Below, in pieces: positions 2,198 through 47,774 of a stretch of 64,000 bases of DNA. This DNA comes from an uncultured Clostridia bacterium (GTDB lineage Bacteria; Bacillota; Limnochordia; Darwinibacteriales; DTU012). Both the position numbers and the translations under genes were made by a program. How positions within the stretch are numbered: the stretch's first letter is position 1; the number at the start of each line of letters is the position of its first letter. The stretch spans positions 2,796 through 66,795 of the forward strand of contig FIZJ01000007.1 in NCBI GenBank assembly GCA_900019385.1. The letters are read 5' to 3'. The notes below the pieces were generated by a model. It had not been told where the DNA came from and did no database searches. It saw only the letters and a program-made list of their open reading frames with translations.

Positions 2198-5100
2198 GTG
2201 GAGGCGGTGAACCTTAAAGAGTTCAAATCTCCGCCAAAGGAATACAGGGCTTCGCCTTTCTGGGCTTGGAATGACCAACTGGACCCGGACGAGCTGCGCC
2301 GGCAGGTGCGGGAACTGAAGCAGCAGTGTTTTGGCGGCTTTTTCATGCATGCCCGGGTAGGCCTAAAGACTGGTTATCTTTCGGAAGCATGGTTTTCATG
2401 TGTGGCGGCAGCCGTCGAAGAAGCCCAGCGGCAGGGTATGGAAGCCTGGCTGTATGATGAGGACCGCTGGCCGAGCGGCTGCGCGGGAGGGCTCGTCACT
2501 GCCGCCAATGATACGTTCAAAGCACGATGGCTGGTTATGCGCCCGGCCGCTTTGGCGGAGATCGGGACACTGCTCTCGGATCCAGATGTTGTGGCCCTGT
2601 TCCGCCTTGTTTTGGATGACGAGGGCCGCCTGATCGATACCGAACGGATTCAGAGCCCCAGCCAGCTGGATGGGCAATACGCGGCTGATCCTCGGGTATC
2701 TTACTGGCAGTTCCGGATGGAGTTTCAAAACCCCACCACCAACTCCAACGGCCATGGATATATCGATGTCCTGAACCCCGAGGCTGTGGCGGAGTTCATC
2801 CGGGTTACCCATGAACAGTATTACCAGCATGTAGGCGGGCACTTTGGCTCAACCATCCCCGGGGTGTTCGCCGATGAGCCCACCTACCGCAGCAAAGCAG
2901 AGGATTCGATCCCTTGGTCGCCGCTGCTTCCTGGTTATTTCCGCAGCGAACACGGCTGCGATCTCATCGATCATCTTCCGCTGCTGTTCTTTGAAGGCGG
3001 CTGCAGCGCCAAAATCCGCTACAGCTTCTACCGCACATTGACCAAAGCCTTTGTGTCCTGTTTTACCAAGCAGATTTACGATTGGTGCGAAGGACGAGGC
3101 TTGCAGTTCACCGGCCATTACTTAAGCGAGGACACACTGGTCAAACAGACCAATGCCATCGGCGCCGCCATGCCTCATTATCGGTACATGCATGCACCGG
3201 GGATCGATCACTTGGGGAACAACATCGCCGACAGCCTGACGCTCAAGCAGTGCGCGTCCGTCGGGAATCAATTCGGCCGCAAGCGCCTGCTCTGCGAAAT
3301 TTTCGGCGTGAGCGGGCATGCCATGACCTTTGAGGATCAGAAATGGATCGCCAATTTCCATTTCGCCCTGGGAATCACCTTCTTGTCGCAGCACTTGGTG
3401 CTCTATTCCATGACCGGCGACCGGAAAAGGGATTATCCGCCCACGTTCAGCTACCATCAGCCTTATTGGCCTTATTATCATAAAATCAATGACTATCTGG
3501 CCAGGGCCGGTTATTTCTGCTCGCAAGGCGATTACATCTGCGACACTCTGGTCCTGCATCCCATAGGCTCGGTCTGGGCCACGTTCGCGAGGCAGAAGGG
3601 GAAGCCCCTTTCCAGTAAGTACGACGCCGGATTGTTCAGGCTGCAGGATAGTTTGTTCAAAAGCCACATTCCCTTTGATTACGGCGATGAACTGATCATG
3701 GAAGACTGTGCCCGAGTGATCGAGGAGGAAGGGCACACCTTCCTGCAGGTTGGAAACGGCAAGTACAGCACAGTGATCGTGCCCCCGTCCTTGACTTGGA
3801 GCCGCAGCACGTACGGCCTGCTCAAAGCGTTCGCCAGCAAGGGAGGGCGGCTGCTCTTCGTCGGCGAAAGGCCGAGCTTGATCGATGGCGAACCAGGAGC
3901 CGGCGAGTGGGAAGAGCTCTGGCAGGAGCAAAGTGTGGCACTGGTTGCAGAAAACGATCCTCAGTCAACCGCAGTACTTAAGCAGTTCTGCCGGCGCCCT
4001 GTCGTGATCAGCGGAAGCGAGGACGGCCACATCTTGTTTCAAGCCCGCCGAGGCGAGGGCTGCTTATATCTGTTCATAACCAATACCAGCAGGGAGGCCG
4101 CTCACACCCTCACGTTGACAGTGCCGATCAAAGGCCGTGTCTACCGGTGCTGTTTTGAAACTGGAGAGATTGCCGAAGTGCAGCCGCGGGAAAAAAGAGA
4201 TCACCTGGAGTTGGAGCTGGTTTTGGCCCCCGCCGGCGCCCACGGGTATATTGTTGCCGAAGCAGAGTTGGAGATGGGCTGCAGCGGTTGGAAACATAGC
4301 GCCGCTGAACTGCGGATTCCTGCCGCAGGAGTGGAAGTGGTACCCTTGAGCAGCCAGTGGCAGTTTGAGCGTGTTCATAAAAACTCAATAACGCTGGATT
4401 ACTGCCGGTATATGATCGAATCCTCCGCTTGCGGTGAATCGGGCCAAGCTGGCTGGAGCGGCAGAATGCCAATCTGGCAGGCACGGCGCCGGCTGTGGCA
4501 CGCTGCGGGGCTCGACTGCTGCCAAGGCATCCAGCCTTGGGCGGTGCTGCCCCATAAAGAACAATTTCAAACACTGCCGGTACGTCTGCAGTTTGAGTTC
4601 TATGCGGACTATCTCCCTGGTGATCTGGGCGTCGTGATCGAAAACAGCCGCCATTGGCAGCTCAAGGTTAACGGTGTTGAGATCAGCACACAAACAGATA
4701 AGTTCCACTGGGACAAGCAGTTTGGGTTGGTGGACATCGCCAAGGCTGCGCGTCGGGGCAGGAACCTGATTGAACTTGCGGGCGGCTTCACATACGGCGT
4801 CGAGATTGAAGAGATTTATCTTGTGGGAGATTTTGCTCTCCGGCAGTGCGGCTATCAGGAATACCGATTGGTGCAGGAGCCCCGGCTTCTTACCGACGGC
4901 AGCTGGGTCTACCAGGGATATCCGTTCTATGCAGGAAACATGGTCTACGCCCAAGAGTTTGATCTGCGGGAAGCGGGCGGCAGCCGCGTCTGGATCAGGC
5001 TCAACCAGCCCAAGGGCACACTGTTCAGGGTGAAGGTGAACAATGGGGAATGGAAGTGCCTCATCTCCCAGCCGTGGGAAGTGGAGATCACCGGTGACTG

Positions 5101-5296
5101 TGTTCCAGGGAAGAACTTGCTGCAAATTGAGGTGGTGGGCTCGCTGCGGAACACATTCGGGCCGCTTCATCACCGCCTGCGGTCGCCGGCTTGGTGCGGG
5201 CCGAAGCAGTTTGAGGATGAATCGAGCTGGGTTGGAAACTATCAGTTTGAAGACTATGGGTTGATCGGCGGCGCTGAGTTGGTGGCGGCAAGATAA
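2198..5296 (+). CDS. Large cytoplasmic glycoside-hydrolase-like protein, CAZy family not assigned
   Basis: 1032-aa ORF with a GTG start; an alternative GTG lies at 2207. No signal peptide. N-terminal FWAWNDQLD motif and a C-terminal beta-sandwich resembling GH2/F5-8-type sugar-binding domains. Gene context is all CAZymes. Confidence 0.45.
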   Translation: MEAVNLKEFKSPPKEYRASPFWAWNDQLDPDELRRQVRELKQQCFGGFFMHARVGLKTGYLSEAWFSCVAAAVEEAQRQGMEAWLYDEDRWPSGCAGGLVTAANDTFKARWLVMRPAALAEIGTLLSDPDVVALFRLVLDDEGRLIDTERIQSPSQLDGQYAADPRVSYWQFRMEFQNPTTNSNGHGYIDVLNPEAVAEFIRVTHEQYYQHVGGHFGSTIPGVFADEPTYRSKAEDSIPWSPLLPGYFRSEHGCDLIDHLPLLFFEGGCSAKIRYSFYRTLTKAFVSCFTKQIYDWCEGRGLQFTGHYLSEDTLVKQTNAIGAAMPHYRYMHAPGIDHLGNNIADSLTLKQCASVGNQFGRKRLLCEIFGVSGHAMTFEDQKWIANFHFALGITFLSQHLVLYSMTGDRKRDYPPTFSYHQPYWPYYHKINDYLARAGYFCSQGDYICDTLVLHPIGSVWATFARQKGKPLSSKYDAGLFRLQDSLFKSHIPFDYGDELIMEDCARVIEEEGHTFLQVGNGKYSTVIVPPSLTWSRSTYGLLKAFASKGGRLLFVGERPSLIDGEPGAGEWEELWQEQSVALVAENDPQSTAVLKQFCRRPVVISGSEDGHILFQARRGEGCLYLFITNTSREAAHTLTLTVPIKGRVYRCCFETGEIAEVQPREKRDHLELELVLAPAGAHGYIVAEAELEMGCSGWKHSAAELRIPAAGVEVVPLSSQWQFERVHKNSITLDYCRYMIESSACGESGQAGWSGRMPIWQARRRLWHAAGLDCCQGIQPWAVLPHKEQFQTLPVRLQFEFYADYLPGDLGVVIENSRHWQLKVNGVEISTQTDKFHWDKQFGLVDIAKAARRGRNLIELAGGFTYGVEIEEIYLVGDFALRQCGYQEYRLVQEPRLLTDGSWVYQGYPFYAGNMVYAQEFDLREAGGSRVWIRLNQPKGTLFRVKVNNGEWKCLISQPWEVEITGDCVPGKNLLQIEVVGSLRNTFGPLHHRLRSPAWCGPKQFEDESSWVGNYQFEDYGLIGGAELVAAR

Positions 5297-6230: not shown

Positions 6231-6371
6231 ATTGACCGCCCCCCTTCCTCCACAGTCATAAACAATGCCTCACTAATACCGGGGTGACACCAGTCTTGAA
6301 ATACAATTCAATGATATAATAGTCAATACCTGCCGTTGATAAGGAAATGGGGGACGACACTAATCAACGCC

Positions 6372-6416
6372 CGACATAAATAAAACCGCCCTGCGGCCTT
6401 GCGTCGAGGGCGGTTC
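6372..6416 (-). terminator. Rho-independent terminator of the AraC-corrinoid operon (minus strand)
   Basis: AACCGCCCT…AGGGCGGTT stem followed on the minus strand by TTTTATTTAT. Confidence 0.6.
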
Positions 6417-6426
6417 ATCAATTGTT

Positions 6427-7068
6427 TCACGCCATACTGGCACAGGCTTGAACAGCCACTTCCGCGGCGGACGCGGCATCAGGCGCGTAAAGGTCAGCGC
6501 CGATGCTGGCGCGGAATTGGTCGGTGACCGGCGCGCCGCCGATCATGATCTTGACCTTGTCTCTGATTCCCGCTGTTTTGGCGGCCTCCACGATCAGCTT
6601 CATTTCGTTCATGGTGGTTGTCAACAGCGCCGAACAGGCAATAATCTGCGCCTGCTCCTGAACAGCTGTCTCGATAAACTTCTCAACCGGCACATCAATA
6701 CCGAGGTCGATCACTTCGAGGCCTTTGCCTTCCATCATCATCCGCACCAGATTCTTGCCGATGTCATGGAGATCGCCCTTCACGGTGCCCAAGACCACTT
6801 TGCCTTTTGCCTTGACATCGTCCGAGACCAGCAGAGGCTTCAAAAGGGCGGTCCCGGCGTTCATGGCTCTAGCGGCAATCAGGACTTCCGGGACAAAAAT
6901 CTCGTTGTTTTTAAACTTGACACCGACAACGTCCATGCCGGCCATCAGGCCTTTTTCCAGAATCTCCTGGGCTGAAAACCCTTCGTCGATTGCCTGCTGC
7001 ACCAGTTCTTTGACAGCGCTGGCGTTTCCCTGCTGCAGTTTTAGGGAAATCTCATTCAGGATGCTCAT
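6427..7068 (-). CDS. Corrinoid (cobalamin-binding) protein, MtaC/MtbC-like: helical cap plus B12-binding Rossmann domain
   Basis: 213-aa ORF with the DxHxxG cobalamin-ligand motif (GDLHDIGKN) and the downstream glycine-rich MIGGAPV motif. GGAGGG ribosome-binding site. Co-oriented with, and 24 bp downstream of, the AraC gene. Confidence 0.8.
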   Translation of the reverse strand: MSILNEISLKLQQGNASAVKELVQQAIDEGFSAQEILEKGLMAGMDVVGVKFKNNEIFVPEVLIAARAMNAGTALLKPLLVSDDVKAKGKVVLGTVKGDLHDIGKNLVRMMMEGKGLEVIDLGIDVPVEKFIETAVQEQAQIIACSALLTTTMNEMKLIVEAAKTAGIRDKVKIMIGGAPVTDQFRASIGADLYAPDAASAAEVAVQACASMA

Positions 7069-7092
7069 CGTATACCCTCCAATACCAGTGTT

Positions 7093-8322
7093 TTATTTAA
7101 TCTGACCGCGTGTTTCCCTGAACTTGCCTGGAGTGGTTCCGGTCATTTTTTTGAACACCCGTGTGAAATAACTTTGGTCCTCAAACCCTACCAGGCTTGA
7201 TACGTCCGCCAGAGGGATAGCTTCGTTCACCAGCAGGTTTTTGCTCTTCTCGATCCGCACAGTGTTGAGATATGTGGTGAAATTGTAACCTGTTTCTTCC
7301 TTGAACAGCCTGCTGAAATAAGCCGGGCTTAAATGGACGTAGCTGGCTGCATCCTCGAGGGTTAGCCTTTCCATGTAGTTGTTGTTGGTGAATTCAATCG
7401 CCTTATATATTATATCCTTGTTTTTGACATTCTTAAAGTTAAACACACAGTCGGTGAAGCGGGTCAGGATTCTGGAGAGCCAGACGCTCAGCTCCTCAAT
7501 GTTGTGCAGGCGAGACACTTGGTTGAGGTATTGGTTGTTCAGACCGAAGATCTCTTCCTGTTCCGCCCCGCCTTCCATTGCCGCCCGGGAAAGAAGGACC
7601 ACAAGTTCCAACGACCGGTATTTTATATCCTCGAAGTCGTTTTGGCCGGTAAAAAACACGTAGCCCAGGATCTCGTTGAGCACTCGCAGGGATCCGGCTT
7701 TGTCGCCCACGGCCACATGTGAGATCAGCTCATTTTCCTTGTCGATTGGGTAATTCTTGTGTCTCGCCCCACCAAGGTAGGTTTGGGGATCGGAAGCGGG
7801 TATGGGGCTGTCCATAGGATCCGGCAAATGCCGTTTGTCATCTGCGGCTGCGTATCCGGCGAGCAGGTACAACAGTTCAGACAAGCTCGTAACCACATCA
7901 GGCTTGATTACCGGTATCTGATCCATGTGCGCTCTAAGCCGCCGCCGCGCTTTTTGATCCGGGATCTGCTGCTCGATGATTTCATCCAGCAGAAAGGCTT
8001 CCGGTTCTATCATCATCACCGGGCCGCCGACAAAAGCGCCCTTGAACTCCTCGCCGCGGTTGATGGGCGCCACCCAGTGAGTAAGCCCCATCGGGCAGAA
8101 GTAGATGTACCTGCCCCCAAACCGCTCCGCCTGATAACTGCCGTACAAATGGACGTTCGCACAATCGCACAAGTGGGCGAAACCATCCTGGACAGCTTCG
8201 CAGAACGGGCTGCAGCTTTTGAGGGCATGGTAGACAACGGACCCGGCGCCGTCGATAATGAAGCTGGAAACTCCCGTCGCCTTGCTGTAATGATCGATCC
8301 ACTGCCTGATCTCTTGAATCAT
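7093..8322 (-). CDS. AraC-family transcriptional regulator with an N-terminal PocR-type ligand-sensing domain
   Basis: 409-aa ORF. The C-terminal AraC helix-turn-helix pair is recognisable (…LEDAASYVHLSPAYFSRLFKEETG…IPLADVSSLVGFEDQSYFTRVFKKMTGTTP). The N-terminal ~200 aa resemble the PocR sensory domain. Confidence 0.75.
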   Translation of the reverse strand: MIQEIRQWIDHYSKATGVSSFIIDGAGSVVYHALKSCSPFCEAVQDGFAHLCDCANVHLYGSYQAERFGGRYIYFCPMGLTHWVAPINRGEEFKGAFVGGPVMMIEPEAFLLDEIIEQQIPDQKARRRLRAHMDQIPVIKPDVVTSLSELLYLLAGYAAADDKRHLPDPMDSPIPASDPQTYLGGARHKNYPIDKENELISHVAVGDKAGSLRVLNEILGYVFFTGQNDFEDIKYRSLELVVLLSRAAMEGGAEQEEIFGLNNQYLNQVSRLHNIEELSVWLSRILTRFTDCVFNFKNVKNKDIIYKAIEFTNNNYMERLTLEDAASYVHLSPAYFSRLFKEETGYNFTTYLNTVRIEKSKNLLVNEAIPLADVSSLVGFEDQSYFTRVFKKMTGTTPGKFRETRGQIK

Positions 8323-8462
8323 GTGCCCGCCCTTCCTTACCTTTCGGTTATATTCTAAACGATCCTGGAACCGGGATCAATGCGGCCGTGGAAAAAGTGC
8401 AGGGGAAAGGCGCCTTCGAGTAGAATAGACAAACAGGAACAAACCATGAGAGGGGAGACGCT

Positions 8463-9767
8463 ATGGGTTTCAAGCTTCGAGTTGGATTACTGGCAGTATT
8501 ATTGATATTGACATGTTCGCAGTTGGCAGGTGCGCAGTACAGCATTCCTCTCACTTCGCAGCGGGCATTCGAGGTTGCGGACAATATCATCGCCTGGCAG
8601 ACCGAGGCTGGTGGGTGGACCAAGAATACTGACTTCTCAAAGGTCATATACCAGCCGGGCATGTCCAGAGGAGAGCGGGCCATAAACGGCCAGGAAGCCG
8701 GGTGCTTCGACAACAATGCCAGCATCAACGAAATGAAGTTTCTAGCCATGATGTACGCACGGCACGGAATCGAGAAGTATCGGGACGCCGTCATCAAAGG
8801 CATCGACTGGATGCTGGACGCCCAGTACCCAAGCGGTGGCTGGCCGCAGTATTATCCGCTCATCGGCGGTTACCATGACAACGTGACCTTCAATGACGGC
8901 GCCATGATGAATGTGCTCAATTATATACAGGAGATCCTGAGGTACCGCGGGCTGTACGAGTTCTTGGGCGAAGAGCGCTTTGCCCGCCTGGAAGCCGCTT
9001 TGGAAAAAGGCATCGACTATATTCTCAAATCCCAGATCCGAGTCAACGGTTACCTCACAGCCTGGTGCCAGCAGCATGATCCAGTTACGTACGAACCGAA
9101 AATGGGGCGGAGCTATGAGCATCCGTCCATCGTCTCGGCGGAATCGGTCCCGATTGTGGAATTTTTGATGGCTCTGCCCGATCCGTCGGAAGAAGTGCGC
9201 CGGGCGATTGTGGGCGCGGTGGAGTGGTTTGAAATTTCCCAGCTGCCGAACGGCCAGTGGGCACGCTTTTACGATATTCAGTCCAATGTCCCGATCTTTT
9301 CGGGGCGGGACGGGATTATCCGCTATGACGTGAAAGACATCGAACTGGAGCGGCAGCAGGGTTACAGCTGGTTCAACGGCAGCGGCGGCAATCTATTGTC
9401 CAAGGCCCGGCGTGATGGGTACATTGACACGCTGCGGCAAAGCCTGCCCGATTACAAACCCCTCACCATCGATGTCTTCGCTGATCCGGCCGTTCCCAGG
9501 GTCATAAGCCCCAAGATCTGGCCCACTCAGACTGTAAGCGGCGTTCTCGCCGTCGAGGTCGAGATCTCCATGCGCAATCCGGAAAACCTGCGGGAAGTGG
9601 CCATCAAGATCAACAATCAAGAAATCTACCGCGGCAGCGATCTCCACATCCAGGTGCCGGTCGACACCACCGCGTTCCGCAATGGAACTTGCACCATCGC
9701 TGTAGAGACCACGACCACACTCGGGACATCCCTGTCCCACTACGTCAATTTCATTGTGGCAAATTAA
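8463..9767 (+). CDS. Secreted pectate lyase, PL10 family (PelA/Pel-15E type), with an extra C-terminal beta domain
   Basis: 434-aa ORF with a signal peptide (MGFKLRVGLLAVLLILTCSQLAGAQ). Motifs AWQTEAGGWTKN and YPSGGWPQYY are typical of (alpha/alpha)3-barrel PL10 lyases. Confidence 0.7.
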   Translation: MGFKLRVGLLAVLLILTCSQLAGAQYSIPLTSQRAFEVADNIIAWQTEAGGWTKNTDFSKVIYQPGMSRGERAINGQEAGCFDNNASINEMKFLAMMYARHGIEKYRDAVIKGIDWMLDAQYPSGGWPQYYPLIGGYHDNVTFNDGAMMNVLNYIQEILRYRGLYEFLGEERFARLEAALEKGIDYILKSQIRVNGYLTAWCQQHDPVTYEPKMGRSYEHPSIVSAESVPIVEFLMALPDPSEEVRRAIVGAVEWFEISQLPNGQWARFYDIQSNVPIFSGRDGIIRYDVKDIELERQQGYSWFNGSGGNLLSKARRDGYIDTLRQSLPDYKPLTIDVFADPAVPRVISPKIWPTQTVSGVLAVEVEISMRNPENLREVAIKINNQEIYRGSDLHIQVPVDTTAFRNGTCTIAVETTTTLGTSLSHYVNFIVAN

Positions 9768-9780
9768 AACCAGACAACAA

Positions 9781-9825
9781 GGCCAACTTCAAGCCCTGTG
9801 GACTTGCAAGTTGGCCTTTCTTTTT
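9781..9825. terminator. Bidirectional rho-independent terminator between the convergent PL10 and URO-D genes
   Basis: GGCCAACTT-gap-AAGTTGGCC hairpin followed by TTTCTTTTT. It overlaps the stop codon of the minus-strand gene. Confidence 0.6.
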
Positions 9826-10909
9826 ACACCGGCTCTTTCACGGCTTCAAACAGCGCCTCGATATTCGCCGGATCCACATCGGGAAGAATCGCTTCATGGC
9901 TCGGCGAGATAATCAGGCCAGTGGGGAAGATGCGTTTCAACTCCTGCACCTTGTCTTTGACCTGCTTAGGGGTGCCGTTGATCAAGAGCCACTGGGCGTC
10001 CACACCGCCGCAGAAAGAGACTTTGTCGCCGAAATCCCGCTTCAATCTCTCCGGTTCCATGTCTTTGGCCAAGGCCTGAATAGGATGGATGACATCGACG
10101 CCTGCGGCAATCAGATCGGGAATGACGGGATAGATTGATCCACAGGAATGATAAATAACCTTCAACCCGTAACTCTTGGCCTGTTCAATGAATTTCCTGG
10201 TACCCGGCATGACAAATTCCCGTATCGCATCCGGAGAGACCATCAATCCCCGCTGGCTGCCGAAGTCATTGCCGATCAGAATGGCGTCCAGCTTGCCTTT
10301 GGTGGCGCTGTAGAAGATCTCGTTGGCTTCAAGGTAGAACTGGGTGATGCGGTCGATTACAGCCCGGAACATTTCCGGCTCGGTCAGCATCTTCACCAGA
10401 GCGGTTTCCATGCCGAAGGCCGAACAGGCGTCTTGAAAGTGCGCCGACCACAAAACGCCCATGATTGGGTGGCCTGGCGGCGCGGCCTCCACCGCTCGGC
10501 GGCATCGGTCCGGATCAATATGTTTCGCCGGATCGGGCCAGTCGAAGTCATCAACGCGGCTGGGATCGGAATAGTCTTCAAAGAAGCCGGGCGCAGTCAG
10601 AGTCCTTTGATCGGGTGTGTTAGCCTTTTTGGCAAACTGAAGGGCGGTGTAAATCGCCTTGCTGTCGGGGGCGTCATAGGGGATCTCCACCGGATAGATG
10701 TCGTCCCCGATCTTTAGTTTCAGCTCGTCGATATCGCCGACGTCGAAATAGGCAAAGAGCCGTTCGCAGGCTTCCGGCACAGGCAGGCCAAGCCAAGACG
10801 CGGGCCTGTCCACCGGCCTTCTTTCCACTGTGGCGAAAAAACGTTCCTTAGGATCCATGGCATTCTTCCTTTCTCGCAGCAAATACCGGTCACTGAATTG
10901 ATTCACCAT
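9824..10909 (-). CDS. Uroporphyrinogen decarboxylase (URO-D)/MtaA-like family methyltransferase
   Basis: 361-aa ORF. N-terminal KERFFATVERRPVDRP and the HSCG motif (IYHSCGSIYPVIPDLIAAGVDVIHP) are characteristic of URO-D/MtaA/CmuA-family proteins. Confidence 0.72.
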   Translation of the reverse strand: MVNQFSDRYLLRERKNAMDPKERFFATVERRPVDRPASWLGLPVPEACERLFAYFDVGDIDELKLKIGDDIYPVEIPYDAPDSKAIYTALQFAKKANTPDQRTLTAPGFFEDYSDPSRVDDFDWPDPAKHIDPDRCRRAVEAAPPGHPIMGVLWSAHFQDACSAFGMETALVKMLTEPEMFRAVIDRITQFYLEANEIFYSATKGKLDAILIGNDFGSQRGLMVSPDAIREFVMPGTRKFIEQAKSYGLKVIYHSCGSIYPVIPDLIAAGVDVIHPIQALAKDMEPERLKRDFGDKVSFCGGVDAQWLLINGTPKQVKDKVQELKRIFPTGLIISPSHEAILPDVDPANIEALFEAVKEPV

Positions 10910-23381: not shown

Positions 23382-24497
23382 ATGCAGTATGCCATGAAGT
23401 ATGTCGAGGACTGGGAGGCTGTCAAAGCCCGCTTTGCGGCCTGGTGGCAGGGAAAGAATCCCGGCCGGCCGCTGATGAGAATTGTCGCCAGGCGGGAACA
23501 GCCCCTTGAAGAGCTGGAGCCCGCTTGGAAAGCGAAGACATTTGTGGACAAACATCTGGAAGTGGAGCGGAAAGTGGTCAACATGCGGAACTACTGCCGC
23601 ACCCGCCGGTTTTTCGCCGAAGCGTTCCCTTCCTTGGATTTGAATATAGGCGCCGGATCGTTCGCCGTTTATCTGGGGCTGGAACCCATTTTTGATCAGA
23701 ACACGGTCTGGTTCCCGGAATGCATCGACGACTGGGACAGCTGGGGAGAATTCCGGTTTGATCCGGACAATCACTGGTGGCAGCGGCATTATCAGGCGAT
23801 CCGGCAGGCGGTGGAGCTCGCTCAAGGGGATTTTCTAGTCAACATCCCTGATATCATCGAAAACCTGGATATTCTCGCCGCCATGCGGGGGGCTCAAAAC
23901 CTCTGCTTAGATTTGATCGACCAGCCGGATGTGATCAAGGCCCGGCTGGAGCAGCTTGACGCTCTGTATTTCCAGTACTATGACCGCTTTTATGATTTGG
24001 TCAAGACTGAGGACGGCGGCAGCAGCTACACGACTTTCAGTATTTGGGGCCCGGGACGGACGGCCAAGATTCAGTGTGATTTTTCCGCCATGATCTCCCC
24101 GGCCCATTTCCGGGAATTTGTCCTGCCGTCCCTCAGGAAACAGTGCCTCAGCCTTGACTGCTCCCTTTACCACCTGGACGGGCCCGACGCAGTCAAGCAC
24201 GTGCCGGCTTTGATGGAAATCGAGGAACTGAACGCTCTGCAGTGGACACCCGGGGCAGGGCAGCCTGACGGAGGCAGCCCTCAATGGTTCCCGATTTATG
24301 ACCAGGTGATCGCCGCCGGCAAGTCATTGTGGATTATGTTCTCCGGGAAGCAGGGCAAATTCGATGATTGGACCGAGGCGGCGGACCGGATAGTGGAGCG
24401 CTACGGCCCGGAGAAACTATACTTCATCTTTCCGGAGATGTCGGAAAAAGAAGCGGAAGCCTTGATGGCGAAAGCAGAACGGGATTGGGCGAGGTAG
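23382..24497 (+). CDS. Divergent URO-D/MtaA-like family protein
   Basis: GGGAGGGA ribosome-binding site. Local similarity to the 9824-10909 protein (CDFSAMISPAHFREFVLPSLRK vs NDFGSQRGLMVSPDAIREFVMPGTRK). The HxxG region is replaced by LYHLDGPDAV. Confidence 0.4.
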   Translation: MQYAMKYVEDWEAVKARFAAWWQGKNPGRPLMRIVARREQPLEELEPAWKAKTFVDKHLEVERKVVNMRNYCRTRRFFAEAFPSLDLNIGAGSFAVYLGLEPIFDQNTVWFPECIDDWDSWGEFRFDPDNHWWQRHYQAIRQAVELAQGDFLVNIPDIIENLDILAAMRGAQNLCLDLIDQPDVIKARLEQLDALYFQYYDRFYDLVKTEDGGSSYTTFSIWGPGRTAKIQCDFSAMISPAHFREFVLPSLRKQCLSLDCSLYHLDGPDAVKHVPALMEIEELNALQWTPGAGQPDGGSPQWFPIYDQVIAAGKSLWIMFSGKQGKFDDWTEAADRIVERYGPEKLYFIFPEMSEKEAEALMAKAERDWAR

Positions 24498-24502
24498 AGG
24501 GT

Positions 24503-25822
24503 ATGAGCCTGAGTCTGATCGGTTTGATCGCTGACGACCTGACCGGTGCTATGGATGCGGGGATGCAGCTTCTCTCCAGGAGACTGGCGATCCACACCGC
24601 CTTGACGGTGGATGATGTGGAAGCTGTGATGGCTGGGGCGGATGTGGTTGTGGCCAACACTCAAAGCCGCAACATCGATCCCCACGCGGCATACAGGCAG
24701 GTTAGAACGGCACTGGACAAACTGGCAGCAGGCGGGTGCCGGGCTTGGTACAAGAAGATCGACTCGACCTTGAGAGGGAATATTGGTGCCGAGCTTAAGG
24801 CTGTCTTGGACAGCGGCGTCTTCGATTTGGTGATCACGGCGCCGGCTCTGCCTTACAATAAAAGGACGACCATCAATGGAATCCACTATGTGGACGGAGT
24901 GGAACTTGCCGAGATCGAACTGGCCAAGGATCCTTTCGCGCCCATTGCCTATTCGGAGATCGGGAGCATCATCAAGACTCAGTTTGAGGGGGAAGTCGGG
25001 CATTTGCCCCTGGACACTGTGCGCCGGGGGAGCGGGGCGCTTGCCGCGAAGGCGAAGGAGTATCTTGCTGCCGGAATCAAAGTGCTGACCGCCGACGCTG
25101 AAACAGAGCGGGATCTCAGGCAGATCGCCTCCGCCGCCGGTGTTTTGCCGTGCAGAGTTCTGTTGTGCGGTTCTGCGGGATTGTTTAGGTATCTTGATGA
25201 GGCTTACAGCCTCGCAAATCCGAGAGGAGAGGGCGAAAAGCCTAAAGTGGACAGGGAGCCTTATGCCCCGCCGGAAGGCGCGCCCGTGCTGGTCCTGTCG
25301 GGAAGCCCCGCCCAGATGTCCAAGCGGCAGATCCAGTATCTAGAGGACAGGCGGCCGGATACGGTTGTTGTCGCTGCTGACATCGCCGCCGTGCCCGAAG
25401 GGGAAGCGGCCGCCAAAACGATGGAGGTGATCAGTACGGTTATCGGCCACCTGCGGGCGGGTAAAAATGTGGCCCTGGACGCTGCCGGAACAAGCAAGGA
25501 AGCGATTCTCAGTCAGACGCGGGGCATGCGGGAGCAGCTTGACCGCTTTAGCTCGACAGTGCAGACACTGCTGCGGGACGCAGCCGCCGCTGCAGCAGCC
25601 CAAGTGCCTCTTGCTGCCTTGGTCCTTTTCGGCGGAGACACAGCAGTTGCGGTGCTGAAGCAGTTGGGGGGCCAGGGCATAGCCATCGTCAAAGAAATGG
25701 AGCCCTACATACCCTTAGGCAGATTGATCGGGGGAGCTTATGCCGGGCTGCTGGTTGTGACCAAAGCGGGCGGGTTCGGCAGTGAAGATTCTCTGCTTCG
25801 GATACTGGAAACGAGGGGATGA
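24503..25822 (+). CDS. Four-carbon acid sugar kinase family (DUF1537/DUF2090; OtnK/OiaK-like)
   Basis: N-terminal IADDLTGAMD motif typical of DUF1537 kinases. About 440 aa. Immediately upstream of a PdxA-family gene. Confidence 0.75.
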   Translation: MSLSLIGLIADDLTGAMDAGMQLLSRRLAIHTALTVDDVEAVMAGADVVVANTQSRNIDPHAAYRQVRTALDKLAAGGCRAWYKKIDSTLRGNIGAELKAVLDSGVFDLVITAPALPYNKRTTINGIHYVDGVELAEIELAKDPFAPIAYSEIGSIIKTQFEGEVGHLPLDTVRRGSGALAAKAKEYLAAGIKVLTADAETERDLRQIASAAGVLPCRVLLCGSAGLFRYLDEAYSLANPRGEGEKPKVDREPYAPPEGAPVLVLSGSPAQMSKRQIQYLEDRRPDTVVVAADIAAVPEGEAAAKTMEVISTVIGHLRAGKNVALDAAGTSKEAILSQTRGMREQLDRFSSTVQTLLRDAAAAAAAQVPLAALVLFGGDTAVAVLKQLGGQGIAIVKEMEPYIPLGRLIGGAYAGLLVVTKAGGFGSEDSLLRILETRG

Positions 25823-25829
25823 CAGCGCG

Positions 25830-26891
25830 ATGAACGAGCAATCCGTGATGGCAAAACTGATGGAGCAGGCAGCAGCCAAAGGCAGGCCGATTGTAGCTGT
25901 CTCCACCGGGGATCCTTCCGGAATCGGGCCGGAGATCTCAGTATCGGCCTTGCGGCATGAGGAGGTTTACCGAATCTGCCGCCCGTTTCTTATCGGCGAT
26001 TCAGCGGCTTTTTCCTCTTTGGATCTAAAGGGGTGGAGGCTCAATCCGGTCGAGCAGATCGGCGATATGCAGTTCCGCTTTGGAACTATCGATCTTTTAA
26101 ATATGAACCTGCTTCCAAGCGCGCCGCCGTTGGGTGTGGTCAACGCGGAATCAGGCAATGCATCGTTTCACTATGTGAAAAAAGCCATCGATCTGGCCAT
26201 GGCCAACGAGGTGGACGCCACGGTCACTGGACCGATCAGCAAAGAAGCGATCAACTTGGCTGGGCACCATTTCTCGGGGCATACAGAGATCTACGCCCAT
26301 TACACCAACAGCGAAGACTATGCCATGGTCTTGGCCCATGAGCATTTTCGGGTGATCCATGTTTCCACCCATGTGTCGCTGCGCCGGGCCTGCGATTTGG
26401 TGAAGAAAGGCCGGGTGCTGAAGGTGATTCAAATCGCAGACCAGGCCTGCCGCCGGCTGGGTATTGCCAAGCCCAGGATCGCGGTTGCAGGTCTGAATCC
26501 CCATGCAGGGGAAAATGGGCTGTTCGGGACTGAGGAGATCACAGAGATCATGCCGGCGATTGCCGAAGCCAGGGAACTGGGCATTGATGTGGATGGGCCG
26601 ATCCCTCCAGACACGGTTTTCCCGAAGCTGAACGGCAGACTGTACGACATCTGCGTCTGCATGTATCATGACCAGGGGCATATTCCCACCAAACTGCTGG
26701 GTTTCACTTGGGACCCTGCCCAAGGCAAGTGGCTTTCGGTGAGCGGTGTCAACATCACCATGGGCCTGCCGATCATCCGGGTCTCGGTCGACCACGGCAC
26801 AGCCTATGACATCGCCGGCAAGGGTGTGGCTTCTGACAGTTCGATGGTTAATGCCATTGCCTATGCTGTTCAGTTGGCCTTAAATCGATGA
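25830..26891 (+). CDS. PdxA-family NAD-dependent dehydrogenase (PdxA2-type; 4-phospho-acid-sugar dehydrogenase or oxidoisomerase)
   Basis: VSTGDPSGIGPEI, HAGENG and HDQGHIP motifs. Classic pairing with a DUF1537 kinase. Confidence 0.8.
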   Translation: MNEQSVMAKLMEQAAAKGRPIVAVSTGDPSGIGPEISVSALRHEEVYRICRPFLIGDSAAFSSLDLKGWRLNPVEQIGDMQFRFGTIDLLNMNLLPSAPPLGVVNAESGNASFHYVKKAIDLAMANEVDATVTGPISKEAINLAGHHFSGHTEIYAHYTNSEDYAMVLAHEHFRVIHVSTHVSLRRACDLVKKGRVLKVIQIADQACRRLGIAKPRIAVAGLNPHAGENGLFGTEEITEIMPAIAEARELGIDVDGPIPPDTVFPKLNGRLYDICVCMYHDQGHIPTKLLGFTWDPAQGKWLSVSGVNITMGLPIIRVSVDHGTAYDIAGKGVASDSSMVNAIAYAVQLALNR

Positions 26892-29826: not shown

Positions 29827-32103
29827 GTGAGATTGAGCAACAAATTCGTCCATGATCTGCTCGATTTTGATCTGCCCGAGACGGCGGAGGATGTTTTTTG
29901 GCTGGCGGGTAAGGCTTCGCGGGTTTGGGAACAGGATGGGGCGGTGATCATCGAGATTCCCTTTCAGGCCCAAACCCGGCCGAAACTGATGGCTGACAAG
30001 ACTGTGGCGCAGAAGCACTATCAGATGGTGGTGCGGGCTTACGGCAGCCAAATCGTGCGCTGCTCCATCGCTTTCGGCGGCAGACTGCCCCGTGATGAGG
30101 AGAATCCCATGATCGAATGGGATCCAACCTTGGCCCAGAACACGTTGAAGGCGCAAAAAACAGCAGAAGGCTGGGATATAACCGACAGCGGCGGCATTGT
30201 GCGGATGCGGATCATCACCGCGCCCAAACCTGTCAAGCACTGGAGTTCGCTGCTGCCGCCGCCGCAGGATTTCTTTGAGGCCAGCGTCTTACCGGACGGC
30301 GCTGCCGAAGTACCGTTCATGGCCTATGACACCTTTTCTCCGGGCCATATCGACTCTGCCTGCCTGGGGTATGTTGAGCGCGGTGGGCAGGCGCACCGGA
30401 GTGTGTTTTCCCTTCATGCCAAACCGGGCGAAAAATTCGCCGGCACAGGTGAAAGGTTCTTGGGCATGAACTTGGCGGGCACCACCTTGAACCTGGAGAA
30501 CGAAGACGCTGCCGGAGCCAACAGCCCCAGAGCATACAAAAACATCCCTTTCTATGTGTCCAGCCGCGGTTACGGGCTGCTGATCATGACTTCAAGCCAT
30601 GTGCGCCTGTCGCTGGCGGACATTTCCACCAGGGCTGCCCAAGGGTTGGTGGAAGGAGATTGTCTTGACTTGTTTTTCATCGGCGGCCGCTGTCTTGTGG
30701 AAATTGTCCGCAATTACCAGCGGATCACCGGTTTTCCCCGCCAAGTGCCGCTTTGGTCCTATGGGGTGTGGATGAGCCGGATGACGTATTTTTCCGCCGA
30801 TGAGACCTTGGAAGTTGTCCAAAGGCTGCGGGAGGGCCGCTTCCCTTGTGATGTGATCCACCTGGACACAGGCTGGTTCCGGAAAGACTGGCAGTGCGAC
30901 TGGCAGTTCAACGAGGAAAGATTTCCCGATCCCAAGGGTTACATGGATCAAATGCGGAGACTCGGGATCAGGATCTCACTTTGGCAAACACCAAATGTGG
31001 CCAAAAAGACAGATCTCTATGCCGAGGCCTGCGAAAAAGGCTATCTGCCCCGCAAGCGCGCGGCTTCGGGGGATGCGTCCAGCTTTGGCGATGTGGAGTA
31101 CGGCGGCCGGATCGACTACACCAACCCTGAAGCGGTGCGCTGGTACCAAGGGCTGTTGAAGCGGCTCTTTGATCTCGGGGCCGAGGTGATCAAAACGGAT
31201 TTTGGCGAGAAGATCGATGACAACGCCGTCTTTTACAACAACATGAGTTATGGGCAGCTTCATAACCTGTACGCCCTTTTGTACCAAAAAGCGGCTTTCG
31301 AGATTACCGAACAGGTTAAAGGCAAAGGCCGGGCAGTGATCTGGGCCCGGGCCGGATGGACTGGGTGCCAGCGGTACCCGGTGCACTGGAGCGGCGACTG
31401 CGCCGCCACCTGGGATGGATTGGCCGGGACCGTCAGGGCAGGCCTGCATGCCGGGTTGTCCGGGTTTGCTTTCTGGAGCCATGATGTGGGTGGTTTTCAC
31501 GGGCTTCCGGACTTTATGAACAGCTGGCCCGAGGATGAGCTTTATGTGCGCTGGACGCAGGTGGGCGCGTTTTCTTCCCATATGCGCTACCACGGCACTT
31601 CACCCCGGGAACCGTACGAGTATCCCATGGTGGCGGGCATTGTCCGGGAATGGCTTAAACTGCGCTATGCCTTGATCCCATATTTGTATGAACAGGGTTG
31701 TGAAGCGGTGGAAAGCGGTTATCCCATTTTCCGGGCGCTGATTTTCCACCATCAGCGTGATCCGTTCTGCTGGCACATCGATGATCAGTTCTACTGCGGC
31801 AGGAGCCTGTTGATTGCCCCAGTGCTGGACAAGGGGGGAATCCGGGATGTCTATCTTCCCGAGGGGCAGTGGACCGATTTCTGGACCGGCGATACCATTG
31901 AAGGGCCGGTACTGCTCAAGGGAGTCCGTTCTGAACTGGCGCGGATTCCAGTCTACGCGGTGACGGGCTCCGAGATTCCGGTTTATCCGGAGTTTGTGCA
32001 GCATACGGGAGAAATGGACTTGGGCAAAGTGGAGAAGCTTAAATTTGATCGATCCTACAAAGGTTTTAAAGCGTCTGTTTTGGGCAGGTTTATCAATCTA
32101 TAA
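29827..32103 (+). CDS. GH31 alpha-xylosidase (YicI-like)
   Basis: KTDFGE catalytic-nucleophile motif, HLDTGW and WSHDVGGF. 758 aa. No signal peptide. Confidence 0.85.
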   Translation: MRLSNKFVHDLLDFDLPETAEDVFWLAGKASRVWEQDGAVIIEIPFQAQTRPKLMADKTVAQKHYQMVVRAYGSQIVRCSIAFGGRLPRDEENPMIEWDPTLAQNTLKAQKTAEGWDITDSGGIVRMRIITAPKPVKHWSSLLPPPQDFFEASVLPDGAAEVPFMAYDTFSPGHIDSACLGYVERGGQAHRSVFSLHAKPGEKFAGTGERFLGMNLAGTTLNLENEDAAGANSPRAYKNIPFYVSSRGYGLLIMTSSHVRLSLADISTRAAQGLVEGDCLDLFFIGGRCLVEIVRNYQRITGFPRQVPLWSYGVWMSRMTYFSADETLEVVQRLREGRFPCDVIHLDTGWFRKDWQCDWQFNEERFPDPKGYMDQMRRLGIRISLWQTPNVAKKTDLYAEACEKGYLPRKRAASGDASSFGDVEYGGRIDYTNPEAVRWYQGLLKRLFDLGAEVIKTDFGEKIDDNAVFYNNMSYGQLHNLYALLYQKAAFEITEQVKGKGRAVIWARAGWTGCQRYPVHWSGDCAATWDGLAGTVRAGLHAGLSGFAFWSHDVGGFHGLPDFMNSWPEDELYVRWTQVGAFSSHMRYHGTSPREPYEYPMVAGIVREWLKLRYALIPYLYEQGCEAVESGYPIFRALIFHHQRDPFCWHIDDQFYCGRSLLIAPVLDKGGIRDVYLPEGQWTDFWTGDTIEGPVLLKGVRSELARIPVYAVTGSEIPVYPEFVQHTGEMDLGKVEKLKFDRSYKGFKASVLGRFINL

Positions 32104-45749: not shown

Positions 45750-47774
45750 ATGAAGTACGGCGTTTCGTATTATCCGGAACACAAGGATCAGGCTGAAATC
45801 GGCCATGATATCGCCCTGATGAAAGAGTTGGGCGTCAATCTGGCGCGGATGGGCGAGTTCGCCTGGTGCAAGTTTGAACCCCGGGAAGGGGAGTATGACT
45901 TTGCCTGGCTTGACCCAGTGATCGAACAGCTGGGGGAGAACGGGATCCAGACCATTGTCTGCACTCCGACTGCCTGCCCTCCGGCTTGGCTTGTGGAAAA
46001 GCACCCGGAGATCCTTTATGTGGACAACCGGGGAGTGGCCAGGCCCTTTGGCGGCAGGCGGCATTATTGTTACAACAACCCGGTCTATCGAGAGTACTCC
46101 CGCAGGATTGCCGAGGCGGTGGCCGCCCACTATGGGGACAACCCCTACGTTTACGCCTTCCAGATTGACAATGAACTGGCTCAGGAGGGGACAGGCCGGT
46201 GCCGCTGCCCGGTGTGCCGGGAGAAATTCCAGAGATGGCTTGAGGCCAAGTATGGGACGATAACCGAGCTAAACAGGAGAATGGGCACAATCTTCTGGGG
46301 CCAGGTTTATGATCATTTCGGCCAGATCCATCCCCCGGTGAACACTATTGAACCTAACACCGCACAGGCCATCCCCGCTTACTTTGAGAACCCGTCGCTG
46401 CGCCTGGATTTCGAGCGTTTCTGCAGCGAGTCCAATATTGAGTATCAAAACATCCAAAGAGATGCGATCAAAGCATACACCGACAAGCCGACAACCACCA
46501 ACGCCACAGGTTTGGCCACCAACAGCATCGATTATTACAGAGCCTTTCAGAATCTGGATGTGTACGCTTTCGACTATTACCCCAACCTGCGAGAGGGCAT
46601 GATCAGTTCCTTCCCGTATGCCCATGCGCGAGGGGTTTGCAATAAGGACTTCTGGCTGCTGGAGTTCGTTTCCGGCGGCGGCCACGGACTCTGGGGTTCA
46701 GGCAGGCTGCAGCCGTACCCCGGCGCCCTGCGCCAGGCGGCCGTCCATGCCTTCGCCGCCGGAGCGGATTTGGTGGCGCATTTTCAGTTTAGGACCTTCC
46801 CGTTTGGGGCGGAACAGCTGAACTATGCCATCGTGGATATCGACGGGATCCCCAGGCGCCGGTTCTACGAAATGCAGGCCGCCGCCAAGGATCTGAGGCA
46901 GCTTGGCTTGACACTGAAGAATTCCTACTTTGAGAACGAAGTTGCCGTCTTGTTCGATTATGATTCACTGTGGGCGCTGAAGATCAAGCCCATCGCCAAG
47001 GATTTCGACTACGCGCATTTCTGCGGCGAGTTCTACCACCAGCTGACCAGGCTGGGTGTGGGAGTCGATGTGATCTCGTTCGATCACGATCTGGACAAAT
47101 ACAAGGTTGTGATCGTCCCAGCCCCCATGATTATGAGCGAAGCGTTCAAGCGGCGTTTGAAACAATACGTCTACAACGGAGGCGTTTTATTATCCACGTT
47201 TCTTGCGGGGGTGAAAAACCTGGACAATCTGGGGATCACCGAGTCCCTGCCTTGTGGGCTTACTGATCTGTTCGGGATCAGAGTCGGGGAAGTGGAACCG
47301 GTGGTGGAGAGCACAGCCGCCGCTGTCACCCTGGACACCGGCACCGGCTGTGCCCGGGGTATGAACAGGTACTGGGCGGAAACCCTCGAACCAAACGGGG
47401 CGGAGCTGATCGGCACATACACCGGCAACTTCCGGGAAGGTATCGGTGTTATCAGCAAAAACAGCTACGGCAAGGGCACAGCATATTACCTGGGCACAGG
47501 CCTGGAGCCGGATCTTCTGAAAACCCTCTTGAAGAGGGTTGTGGAGGAAGGCGGGGTTGCCGGGCTGCCGTTCGCGGTCCCAGAGGGTGTGGAAGTGCTT
47601 GTGCGGAAGTACAACCACCAAAATTTGTACTGCATCTTCAATTTCTGCAAAGAACCAGCGGCAGTGGAGCTTGAGCGAGCCTACCACGATGTCCTGCGGG
47701 GCGCTGCTGTCGATGGGCTGGCGGAACTGCCGCCGAAAGGGTATCTGTTCTTATTGGAGGAGGGATGGGATTGA
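45750..47774 (+). CDS. GH42 beta-galactosidase (YesZ/BgaB-like)
   Basis: YGVSYYPEH start. Cys cluster GRCRCPVCREK (GH42 Zn site). IDNE acid/base region. AGAGGGGA ribosome-binding site. Confidence 0.85.
   Translation: MKYGVSYYPEHKDQAEIGHDIALMKELGVNLARMGEFAWCKFEPREGEYDFAWLDPVIEQLGENGIQTIVCTPTACPPAWLVEKHPEILYVDNRGVARPFGGRRHYCYNNPVYREYSRRIAEAVAAHYGDNPYVYAFQIDNELAQEGTGRCRCPVCREKFQRWLEAKYGTITELNRRMGTIFWGQVYDHFGQIHPPVNTIEPNTAQAIPAYFENPSLRLDFERFCSESNIEYQNIQRDAIKAYTDKPTTTNATGLATNSIDYYRAFQNLDVYAFDYYPNLREGMISSFPYAHARGVCNKDFWLLEFVSGGGHGLWGSGRLQPYPGALRQAAVHAFAAGADLVAHFQFRTFPFGAEQLNYAIVDIDGIPRRRFYEMQAAAKDLRQLGLTLKNSYFENEVAVLFDYDSLWALKIKPIAKDFDYAHFCGEFYHQLTRLGVGVDVISFDHDLDKYKVVIVPAPMIMSEAFKRRLKQYVYNGGVLLSTFLAGVKNLDNLGITESLPCGLTDLFGIRVGEVEPVVESTAAAVTLDTGTGCARGMNRYWAETLEPNGAELIGTYTGNFREGIGVISKNSYGKGTAYYLGTGLEPDLLKTLLKRVVEEGGVAGLPFAVPEGVEVLVRKYNHQNLYCIFNFCKEPAAVELERAYHDVLRGAAVDGLAELPPKGYLFLLEEGWD

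Follow-up and report, generated by a model that had tools for sequence, protein, structure and literature searches.

The 64-kb stretch of DNA analysed here (the window) belongs to contig FIZJ01000007.1 of an uncultured Clostridia bacterium, whose 2.17-Mb genome (G000) is 97.7% complete and whose DNA was detected in anaerobic-digester and wastewater samples. Region 6427-10909 of the window consists of four genes, respectively encoding a stand-alone corrinoid protein (CoP), a regulator with a PocR sensor and an AraC-type DNA-binding domain, a PL10 pectate lyase and a protein of the uroporphyrinogen decarboxylase (URO-D) fold, paralog A; two further URO-D-fold proteins, paralogs B and C, are encoded elsewhere in the window (Table 1). 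The window also codes for proteins of GH138 and GH143, families specific to rhamnogalacturonan-II (RG-II), which is the most complex plant glycan and contains the methyl-ether sugars 2-O-methyl-L-fucose and 2-O-methyl-D-xylose. The GH138 protein matches PDB 6HZF (BPa0997) over residues 83-904 (E 9e-203), and the GH143 protein, encoded two genes after paralog B, matches residues 25-610 of PDB 5MQR (E 6e-137). On these two matches the window is an RG-II utilisation locus, which narrows the plant-glycan locus of the original prediction for this DNA to one particular glycan. Its further content includes GH29, GH42, GH2 and PL1 enzymes, two CUT1 ABC sugar transporters, DHDPS gene(s) accompanying the sugar-acid kinase and PdxA-type dehydrogenase, and two split transketolases; paralogs B and C sit in same-strand operons packed with genes of this locus.

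Table 1. Features of the window discussed in the text, with coordinates counted from its first nucleotide
Feature	Position	Strand	Basis and remarks
Stand-alone corrinoid protein CoP (P0001), 213 aa	6427..7068	-	MtaC/MtgC-type; B12-binding_2 cap and Rossmann B12-binding domain
PocR-sensor/AraC-HTH regulator (P0003), 409 aa	7093..8322	-	PocR E 2e-24, HTH_18, HTH_AraC
Paralog A (P0002), candidate methyl-sugar:corrinoid methyltransferase (methyltransferase I)	9824..10909	-	Pfam URO-D E 2e-26
Paralog B	50508..51653	+	Pfam URO-D E 6e-10; in operon between GH138 and oxidoreductase/GH143
Paralog C, of a family without Pfam model	23382..24497	+	URO-D assignment by fold only
Promoter-like site before regulator-CoP pair	8352..8380	-	Consensus scan only; weak, the region having 6 such sites against 4.3 expected
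Terminator-like hairpin just past CoP stop codon	6382..6400	-	Consensus scan and sequence view
Terminator-like hairpin after paralog A	9777..9799	-	Consensus scan
GH138 alpha-galacturonidase homologue, RG-II chain A marker	47765..50488	+	907 aa; just upstream of paralog B
GH143-type (BT1020 N-terminal half) RG-II enzyme	52780..54576	+	Pfam Beta-prop_BT_1020 E 1e-95
GH31	29827..32103	+	Pfam GH31
Sugar-acid kinase (SBD_N/NBD_C) and PdxA-type dehydrogenase	24368..26891	+	Pfam; directly after paralog C
PL10 pectate lyase	8463..9767	+	Pfam Pec_lyase E 9e-95; TIGR02474 above cut-off
GH106 alpha-L-rhamnosidase-like protein	2198..5296	+	Pfam Glyco_hydro_106 E 8e-10

The stand-alone corrinoid protein that the original prediction had recognised by its motif G-D-L-H-D-I-G-K-N (residues 98-106, with DxHxxG at 99-104) is matched by the Pfam models B12-binding_2 (E 2e-21) and B12-binding (E 1e-26). 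Its best NCBIfam matches are MtgC, pyl_corrinoid and MtbC at 181-228 bits, which is under the MtgC-type cut-offs of 310-370, and on TIGR02370 it reaches 201.2 bits against a cut-off of 215.3; with both Pfam domains and the motif present, these matches are in line with the cobalamin-binding fold of methyltransferase-cognate corrinoid proteins. The CarH model NF052513, in contrast, gives 28.5 bits against a cut-off of 400, and the 213 residues of the protein include no DNA-binding domain; a CarH-like photoreceptor was rejected on this score and on the architecture. Homologues 63-91% identical to CoP are spread across Clostridia and found in some Spirochaetes. The regulator combines a PocR domain (residues 2-158) with HTH_18 (residues 326-403), as is expected of PocR/MtaR-type AraC activators, and with 116 bits on the PocR equivalog model NF047788 (cut-off 500) it is not an orthologue of Salmonella PocR. 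Its stop codon lies 24 nucleotides before the start of CoP, whose ATG is preceded by GGAGG at 7 nucleotides. Together with the promoter- and terminator-like sites these features make a two-gene operon plausible, so that the co-transcription claimed by the original prediction is credible. Directly downstream of the terminator of this putative operon lies a gene for a Dam-type (D12 class) N6-adenine DNA methyltransferase (5310-6230, minus strand).

The neighbourhoods of CoP homologues indicate what this pair is for. Of 79 fetched loci, 46 have a close homologue of the PocR-AraC regulator within 4 kb of CoP, and in 31 this gene directly precedes CoP on the same strand; RACo, the activase of methyl-carrying CoPs, is encoded within 10 kb in 34 loci and at least one URO-D gene is present in 46, with at least one of the three near CoP in 69. 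In four Clostridia loci (L052, L059, L061 and L091) a close MtaB homologue joins the PocR-AraC and CoP module, being placed between regulator and CoP in L061. These loci reproduce the mtaR-mtaB-mtaC layout of Eubacterium limosum, in which MtaR, of the same PocR-AraC architecture, activates the mta operon (PMC13602510). Because of these neighbourhoods, and of the MtaB loci matching the mta layout, we read the regulator and CoP as the carrier-plus-activator cassette of corrinoid methyltransferase systems and not as a CarH-like sensor. The presence of MtaB near PocR-AraC and CoP, and also in a Bacteroidia RG-II locus described below, further suggests that pectin-derived methanol may enter through the same carrier in non-acetogens. 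We also observed, in many Clostridia, URO-D proteins of about 450 residues encoded directly beside P0001-type CoPs (L018/L019:5886-7241, L046, L056, L074, L081, L083 and L085); the URO-D protein of Petroclostridium (L018/L019) is fused to a thioredoxin-like domain and accompanied by a small thioredoxin-like protein and CobW.

All three proteins that the original prediction had assigned to the URO-D family do belong there, paralogs A and B by scores of 93 and 39 bits on the Pfam URO-D model (cut-off 23.9) and paralog C by fold only. The true start of paralog A is probably Met18 (10858), since its homologues have 340-346 residues, M18 is invariant and residues 1-15 are modelled below pLDDT 50. 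Its gene lies outside the CoP operon, with the oppositely oriented PL10 gene in between and a terminator-like site of its own. The best fold match of paralog A is MtaA of Methanosarcina (4AY7), and MtaA, MtbA and MtsA are the nearest characterised folds to the paralogs as a group. Paralog A scores 21 bits on the hemE model TIGR01464 (cut-off 303) and 43-55 bits on MtaA/CmuA models (cut-offs 235-400); on TIGR01463 and NF004889 (cut-offs 235-244) it obtains 53-55 bits and paralog B 25-29, below the family thresholds. The hemE model does not match paralogs B and C, and of the other URO-D proteins of the genome, named here after their contigs, it gives 46 bits to the one on C49 and 64 bits to the one on C18, with no match to that on C21. 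Each of the five genes in the genome that Pfam assigns to URO-D obtains a higher score with MtaA/CmuA models than with hemE. As judged by these scores, far below 303 bits, and by the zinc ligands described below, none of paralogs A, B and C is a genuine HemE, and this function, named in the original prediction as an outcome that would undo it, was rejected.

Paralog B has the motif H-C-C-G-N and a non-coordinating residue at the third ligand position, and genes like it stand beside CoP or RACo in L060, L066, L067 and L092-L094. Paralog C is matched by no Pfam or NCBIfam model; its AlphaFold model (pLDDT 94.2), however, retrieves URO-D folds, either HemE or MtaA, in all of the best 26 PDB matches of a Foldseek search (E 7e-9 to 6e-6, TM about 0.6). 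Alignment of paralog C with the paralog-A family by hhalign has a probability of 74% and reaches the shared catalytic His, and the segment H264-L-D266-G is invariant in 31 homologues. Homologues of paralog C occur in an operon of LacI, URO-D, ABC sugar transporter (CUT1) and C genes, and also among GH genes. With six URO-D-fold genes in the whole genome, about 0.18 would be expected per 64 kb, against the three observed in the window.

The zinc sites of these proteins are informative about the bond that they may cleave. Compared with MtaA (4AY7), paralog A keeps His254-x-Cys256 and has Glu339 at the place of the third zinc-binding Cys; H254, C256, H338 and E339 are invariant in 121 orthologues. 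In a six-sequence alignment paralog B shows His-Cys-x, and paralog C and the C18 and C21 paralogs show His-x-Asp, only the C49 enzyme having His-Cys-Cys. According to Kountz and Balskus (PMC10418091) the S-methyltransferases of the UroD superfamily have His-Cys-Cys, whereas O-methyltransferases swap Cys for Asp/Glu or for non-ligands. By this rule paralogs A, B and C would have the ligands of UroD-type O-demethylases: their sites are O-type, and the His-Cys-Cys set of thiol (S/Se) methyltransferases is absent from them.

Orthologues of paralog A that are 68-88% identical were found in Bacillota, Bacteroidota, Latescibacterota and Moduliflexus-type bacteria, those in other phyla being 68-74% identical, and we read seven of their neighbourhoods, the window's own included. 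In a Bacteroidia metagenome-assembled genome (L102, GCA_025996865) the genes run PdxA, sugar-acid kinase, rhaM, MtaB (5189-6565), GH31, C homologue, A, rhaM, RhaT, SSF, stand-alone homocysteine S-methyltransferase, CoP, Met_synt_B12-like, GH141, MFS and GH78; the contig also carries GH138, at a distance of about 12 kb downstream from paralog A. The C homologue directly upstream of A is 35% identical to paralog C of the window (E 2e-73), the GH31 protein is 48% identical over 750 residues to its counterpart in the window, and the pair of sugar-acid kinase and PdxA is likewise shared. Other contexts are more compact: A, rhaM, RACo, sugar transporter and GH78 in L108; GH2, GH2, A, rhaM, MFS, GH127, GH2 and GH106 in L106; monosaccharide ABC transporter, A and rhaM in L103; and ABC transporter, Fucose_iso_C, A and DUF4432 in Mahella (L101), with GH141 further downstream. 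The orthologue in Mahella australiensis is 74% identical to paralog A. A Fucose_iso_C gene lies near paralog A in the window too. A gene for a RhaM-family mutarotase of 107-109 residues directly follows paralog A in four of the seven contexts (L102, L103, L106 and L108); a tblastn search of G000 found no rhaM homologue. Taken together, these gene contexts point to an imported mono- or oligosaccharide as the probable substrate.

These genes also tend to occur in the same genomes. Across 41 related genomes RACo is present in all 14 with paralog-A-like matches and in 5 of the 27 without, and the stand-alone CoP in 13 of those 14. At the level of the class (95 genomes), paralog A and GH138 were found in exactly the same four genomes, a concordance which the Bacteroidia case matches. 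Some genomes show expansions of the URO-D family: G009, G012, G014 and G016 have 14-41 paralog matches per 2.7-4.2 Mb, together with one to three stand-alone CoPs found with this query, and none in G009 (86% complete), while G047, G048 and G068 have 29-33 first-look URO-D candidates, which are unconfirmed. Many URO-D proteins to few CoPs would fit a hub carrier, and this may perhaps explain the unusual conservation of CoP.

A model of the complex between CoP and paralog A supports their binding. It has an ipSAE of 0.74, against 0.00 for the best control; of 78 solved complexes 51 attain the mark set for this score, as do 2 of 108 mismatched pairs. The three runs have at least 90% of their contacts in common, the pLDDT of the partner is 88, and the modelled interface involves the conserved segments 167-176 and 218-228 of paralog A.

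Further parts of a putative corrinoid system are distributed over the genome. The original prediction, having seen no activase or methyltransferase II in the window, had supposed them to be encoded elsewhere: for the activase this was correct, there being one copy of RACo, on contig C49, but no intact pterin-binding methyltransferase II was found in the genome. The C49 cluster (L001:1184-5451) codes for a second CoP, a full-length MtaA-like URO-D protein with His-Cys-Cys, a Met_synt_B12-like protein and RACo, and is similar to type 1 mlp clusters, for which a role in the metabolism of methyl-sulfur or methyl-selenium compounds has been proposed. The second CoP is 58% identical to P0001. Candidates for methyltransferase I are paralogs A, B and C and the paralogs on C18, which follows ABC sugar permeases and a xylose-isomerase-like gene, and C21, which follows GH35. 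The inventory thus stands at two CoPs, one RACo and these candidates, with two possible enzymes for unloading the carrier, a MetH remnant on contig C11 and the His-Cys-Cys URO-D protein on C49. As to cobalamin itself, no cobalamin riboswitch was found in the G000 genome and no CobS in the genus, and we take the organism to be a probable auxotroph for corrinoids that lacks control by riboswitches. Besides the two CoPs, the B12-dependent proteins of the genome include a B12-radical-SAM protein on C16.

The same genome offers indications of the methyl acceptor. No MtaB, MtrH, MTHFR, MetE or intact Pterin_bind methyltransferase II was found in it, the sole Pterin_bind match being partial, limited to positions 7-117 of 244 and located at the C-terminal end of a 454-aa protein. 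Since intact Pterin_bind, MtrH and MTHFR were not found in a genome that is 97.7% complete, tetrahydrofolate is probably not the acceptor, and it was rejected as a candidate. This protein, an N-terminus of MetH (C11:164139-165503, minus strand; L005:4140-5504), is the single homocysteine methyltransferase of the genome; its first 290 residues form a complete homocysteine S-methyltransferase domain, and it has no B12 domain. Within the genus, a species without GH138, paralog A and RACo has an 820-aa MetH with the full pterin and B12 module, whereas among the RG-II species MetH has 454 and 478 residues in G000 and G003 and 299 residues in a third; no MetH homologue was found in a fourth (G004, 94% complete). 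Furthermore, stand-alone homocysteine methyltransferases adjoin CoP in L102 and in L086, where the gene comes after RACo, URO-D and CoP. From the missing methyl-tetrahydrofolate module and MTHFR, the MetH module without a B12 domain and the stand-alone enzymes beside CoP, we infer that homocysteine would be the most economical acceptor and the MetH-derived enzyme the best candidate for methylating it; the C49 His-Cys-Cys enzyme could instead unload the carrier to another thiol.

Based on these observations we consider it very probable that the module is a corrinoid-methyltransferase system, and propose, with a probability of about 0.6, that it carries out corrinoid-dependent O-demethylation of RG-II methyl-ether sugars, the methyl group possibly going to homocysteine. 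The corresponding idea in the original prediction gains support from the O-type zinc ligands, the synteny across phyla and the CoP:A model. Under this proposal RG-II methyl-ether sugars would enter through the ABC transporters of the locus, and paralogs A, B and C would be cytoplasmic zinc-dependent methyltransferase I enzymes, each taking an O-methyl group, most likely from 2-O-methyl-L-fucose, 2-O-methyl-D-xylose or oligosaccharides bearing them, and passing it to Co(I) of the stand-alone CoP (6427-7068). The PocR-AraC protein would act as an MtaR-like activator of the carrier gene, and RACo would re-reduce carrier that has become oxidised to Co(II). From the methyl-Co(III) carrier the methyl group would go to a thiol, likeliest homocysteine, which the C11 MetH remnant would convert to methionine; alternatively, the unloading would fall to the MtaA-like enzyme of C49. 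In this scheme the corrinoid dependence of the three paralogs, the sugar substrate, which is deduced from genomic context, and the acceptor are all suggested indirectly. A wider generalisation, in which URO-D sugar O-demethylases and a hub CoP, handing the methyl group directly to a MetH-derived homocysteine methyltransferase, replace the pterin module of methionine synthase in anaerobes without MTHFR, MetE and an intact MetH, dietary or plant methyl ethers feed methionine synthesis and URO-D expansions (up to 41 paralog matches in one genome) form a repertoire of carbohydrate demethylases, strikes us as possible and rather doubtful.

Several points weigh against the demethylation proposal. 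Its basis is genomic context, the ligand pattern and a model. The regulator and CoP, which the original prediction had joined with paralog A in one module, form a unit apart from it: with PL10 between them, paralog A is predicted to be a separate transcription unit, and the other URO-D genes are likewise transcribed apart from CoP on this prediction. The CoP:A model might mirror a family likeness to corrinoid-protein:methyltransferase pairs. The UroD O-demethylases known so far have aryl methyl ethers as substrates (PMC10418091), the enzyme for methanol, MtaB, is unrelated to them, and we found no precedent for cleaving the aliphatic methyl ether of a sugar with Co(I). The zinc-ligand rule is the summary of a single preprint, and the ligands assigned to B, C and the other paralogs rest on an alignment of six sequences. 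The co-occurrence counts cover kin genomes, so that their independence is overstated, and the concordance of GH138 with paralog A in the class is effectively one event. One paralog-A context (L107) is without sugar genes. The pairing of A with rhaM points to a rhamnose-type sugar, which is no known methyl sugar of seed-plant RG-II; the recurrence of RhaM, which 2-O-methyl-fucose and 2-O-methyl-xylose do not explain, leaves a methylated rhamnose-type sugar open as a substrate. The truncated MetH could be just a decaying gene, and, no CobS or cobalamin riboswitch having been found, the cell must import corrinoids.

Other explanations account for parts of the same evidence. One holds that the paralogs belong to a corrinoid system with another donor or direction, either as methyltransferase II enzymes unloading the carrier or in the use of pectin-derived methanol or methyl-thiols. 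The occurrence of MtaB beside PocR-AraC and CoP in the four loci named above and in the Bacteroidia RG-II locus, the match to the mtaR-mtaB-mtaC layout of an acetogen and the nearness of the paralogs to MtaA, MtbA and MtsA would all suit it. We regard it as unlikely, however: G000 is without MtaB, for which reason methanol was rejected as donor there, the His-Cys-Cys site typical of thiol methyltransferases is missing from paralogs A, B and C, three distinct conserved paralogs in glycan operons fit substrate-specific methyltransferase I enzymes better than a common methyltransferase II, and a His-Cys-Cys candidate for unloading is already present on C49.

It is also quite unlikely, in our estimate, that the paralogs are corrinoid O-demethylases for aryl methyl ethers accompanying plant glycans, such as ferulate, sinapate or methoxylated flavonoid aglycones, and not for sugars. 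Phenyl methyl ethers are indeed the substrates of all characterised UroD-superfamily O-demethylases (OdmB, VdmB; PMC10418091), aryl substrates are equally compatible with the O-type zinc ligands, and CoP and RACo co-occur with the paralogs. Against aryl substrates speak the minimal cassettes of paralog A with monosaccharide ABC, RhaT or MFS transporters and RhaM, its sugar isomerase-like neighbour, the position of paralog C inside operons of CUT1 sugar transporters, and the finding that the adjacent genes of the window include none for an esterase or for aromatic catabolism.

We give still less credence to the view that the URO-D-fold proteins are cofactor-independent or metal-only decarboxylases or isomerases acting on RG-II sugar acids and unrelated to CoP. 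RG-II does contain unusual acidic sugars, HemE, of the same fold, works without a cofactor, HemE and MtaA come out equally high in fold searches, and paralog A is not co-transcribed with CoP. This view, on the other hand, is at odds with the invariance of the MtaA-type zinc positions, the operon shared by RACo and paralog A in L108, the Bacteroidia locus with CoP, a Met_synt_B12-like gene and homocysteine methyltransferase, the presence of RACo in every one of the 14 related genomes with the paralogs, and the supported CoP:A model. Finally, a B12- or light-sensing pair of CoP and PocR-AraC with split CarH logic, in which CoP carries no methyl group and which the original prediction had offered as an alternative, would find favour in the tight and widely conserved adjacency of the two genes and in the use of another B12 sensor where no cobalamin riboswitch or CobS was found, but is most improbable in view of the 201-228 bits of CoP on methyltransferase-cognate corrinoid models against 28 on CarH, the RACo and URO-D genes in 34 and 46 of the 79 loci, the position of MtaB between regulator and CoP in L061 and the ordinary operon activator that is MtaR of the same architecture.

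The proposed sugar O-demethylation system has recognisable relatives among characterised ones. The aryl O-demethylases (OdmABCD/VdmB of Acetobacterium dehalogenans, and those of Desulfitobacterium hafniense) resemble it in having a UroD methyltransferase I in which a zinc ligand is not Cys, together with a stand-alone corrinoid protein (about 210 residues) and a RACo-type ATP-dependent activase (PMC10418091). They act on phenyl methyl ethers, with tetrahydrofolate as acceptor via a pterin-binding methyltransferase II, whereas the system described here has a context of RG-II and sugar transport, no intact pterin-binding methyltransferase II or MTHFR, and genes spread over three contigs. MtaABC and the mta operon of Eubacterium limosum share with it a PocR-AraC activator encoded with the corrinoid protein, and in MtaA (4AY7) the nearest relative of paralog A; in contrast, MtaB is lacking here, the third zinc ligand of paralog A is Glu and not Cys, and its scores are below the MtaA/CmuA cut-offs. 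Type 1 mlp clusters (Kountz and Balskus, bioRxiv 2023) comprise UroD methyltransferases of non-methanogens, CoP and RACE/RACo without a tetrahydrofolate methylase, and the C49 cluster is alike. Unlike Mlps, however, which are His-Cys-Cys enzymes proposed for methyl-sulfur or methyl-selenium, paralogs A, B and C of the window have O-type sites in glycan loci; sugars and PocR are unmentioned in that study (PMC10418091). A precedent for the acceptor is MtgBCD of Ruegeria pomeroyi, in which a shared corrinoid protein couples a catabolic demethylase to homocysteine methylation (PNAS 2025, PMC12478193). The likeness lies in the MetH-derived homocysteine module without its own B12 domain here, and in the stand-alone one between A and CoP in L102; the donor there is glycine betaine via an MttB-family enzyme in aerobes, and the coupling here is inferred.

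From the side of the glycan, the RG-II degradome of Bacteroides thetaiotaomicron (5MQR BT1020; 6HZF GH138) is similar in its GH138, GH143, GH106, GH31 and fucosidase-type content, GH31 being a family that includes alpha-xylosidases, while the loci described here add URO-D, CoP and homocysteine methyltransferase genes. That organism was reportedly found by Ndeh and colleagues in 2017 to leave the 2-O-Me-Xyl-Fuc linkage uncleaved, and no demethylase is said to have been described for it. Removal of a sugar methyl ether during polysaccharide utilisation is said to have been reported by Reisky and colleagues in 2018 for marine porphyran degraders, in which a cytochrome P450 demethylates 6-O-methyl-D-galactose. 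That reaction is, however, oxidative, O2-dependent and formaldehyde-releasing, belongs to an unrelated family and is unusable by strict anaerobes. We know of no anaerobic route or enzyme for removing sugar methyl ethers, and full-text literature searches retrieved no description of such a route or system. What we propose is that an enzyme system of a known kind acts on a new class of substrate and is probably coupled to its acceptor in a new way.

The window holds further genes of potential relevance to RG-II. At 13351-21454 it encodes a Fucose_iso_C-like isomerase, an Asp/Glu-racemase-like protein, a split transketolase, a transaldolase-like protein, a GH43-like protein and a second split transketolase; by analogy with published apiose pathways, this may be a pathway of the transketolase type for apiose, the branched pentose of RG-II. 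The RG-II operons further encode a large DUF5696 protein of 967 residues (39394-42297) and, directly before paralog C, a protein of 638 residues (21451-23367) that gives no more than a faint GH127-like match; searches of PDB sequences with both found no solved relative, and the two are candidate new RG-II enzymes. An Rfam scan of the window found no RNA family. Six anaerobic-digester metatranscriptome libraries contain the region as assembled contigs of 4-9 kb, but these span genes of both strands and therefore say nothing on transcription, the extent of operons or induction. A 14-nucleotide insertion behind position 13316, in the intergenic stretch before the Fucose_iso_C-like gene, is present in contigs of two RNA libraries and absent from those of the other two, and looks like strain variation.

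If the proposal is correct, a corrinoid sugar O-demethylase would close the gap presented by the 2-O-methyl-xylose-fucose unit of RG-II, reportedly the single part that the model gut degrader does not break down, and the methyl-transfer chemistry of Co(I), known for aryl ethers and methanol, would come to include carbohydrates. With small, soluble proteins and defined candidate substrates, the idea is directly testable. It would also explain many unannotated "uroporphyrinogen decarboxylase family" genes in the carbohydrate-active enzyme (CAZyme) loci of Bacillota and Bacteroidota, and would link the degradation of fibre with the cross-feeding of B12 and the supply of methionine in digesters, and possibly also in guts.

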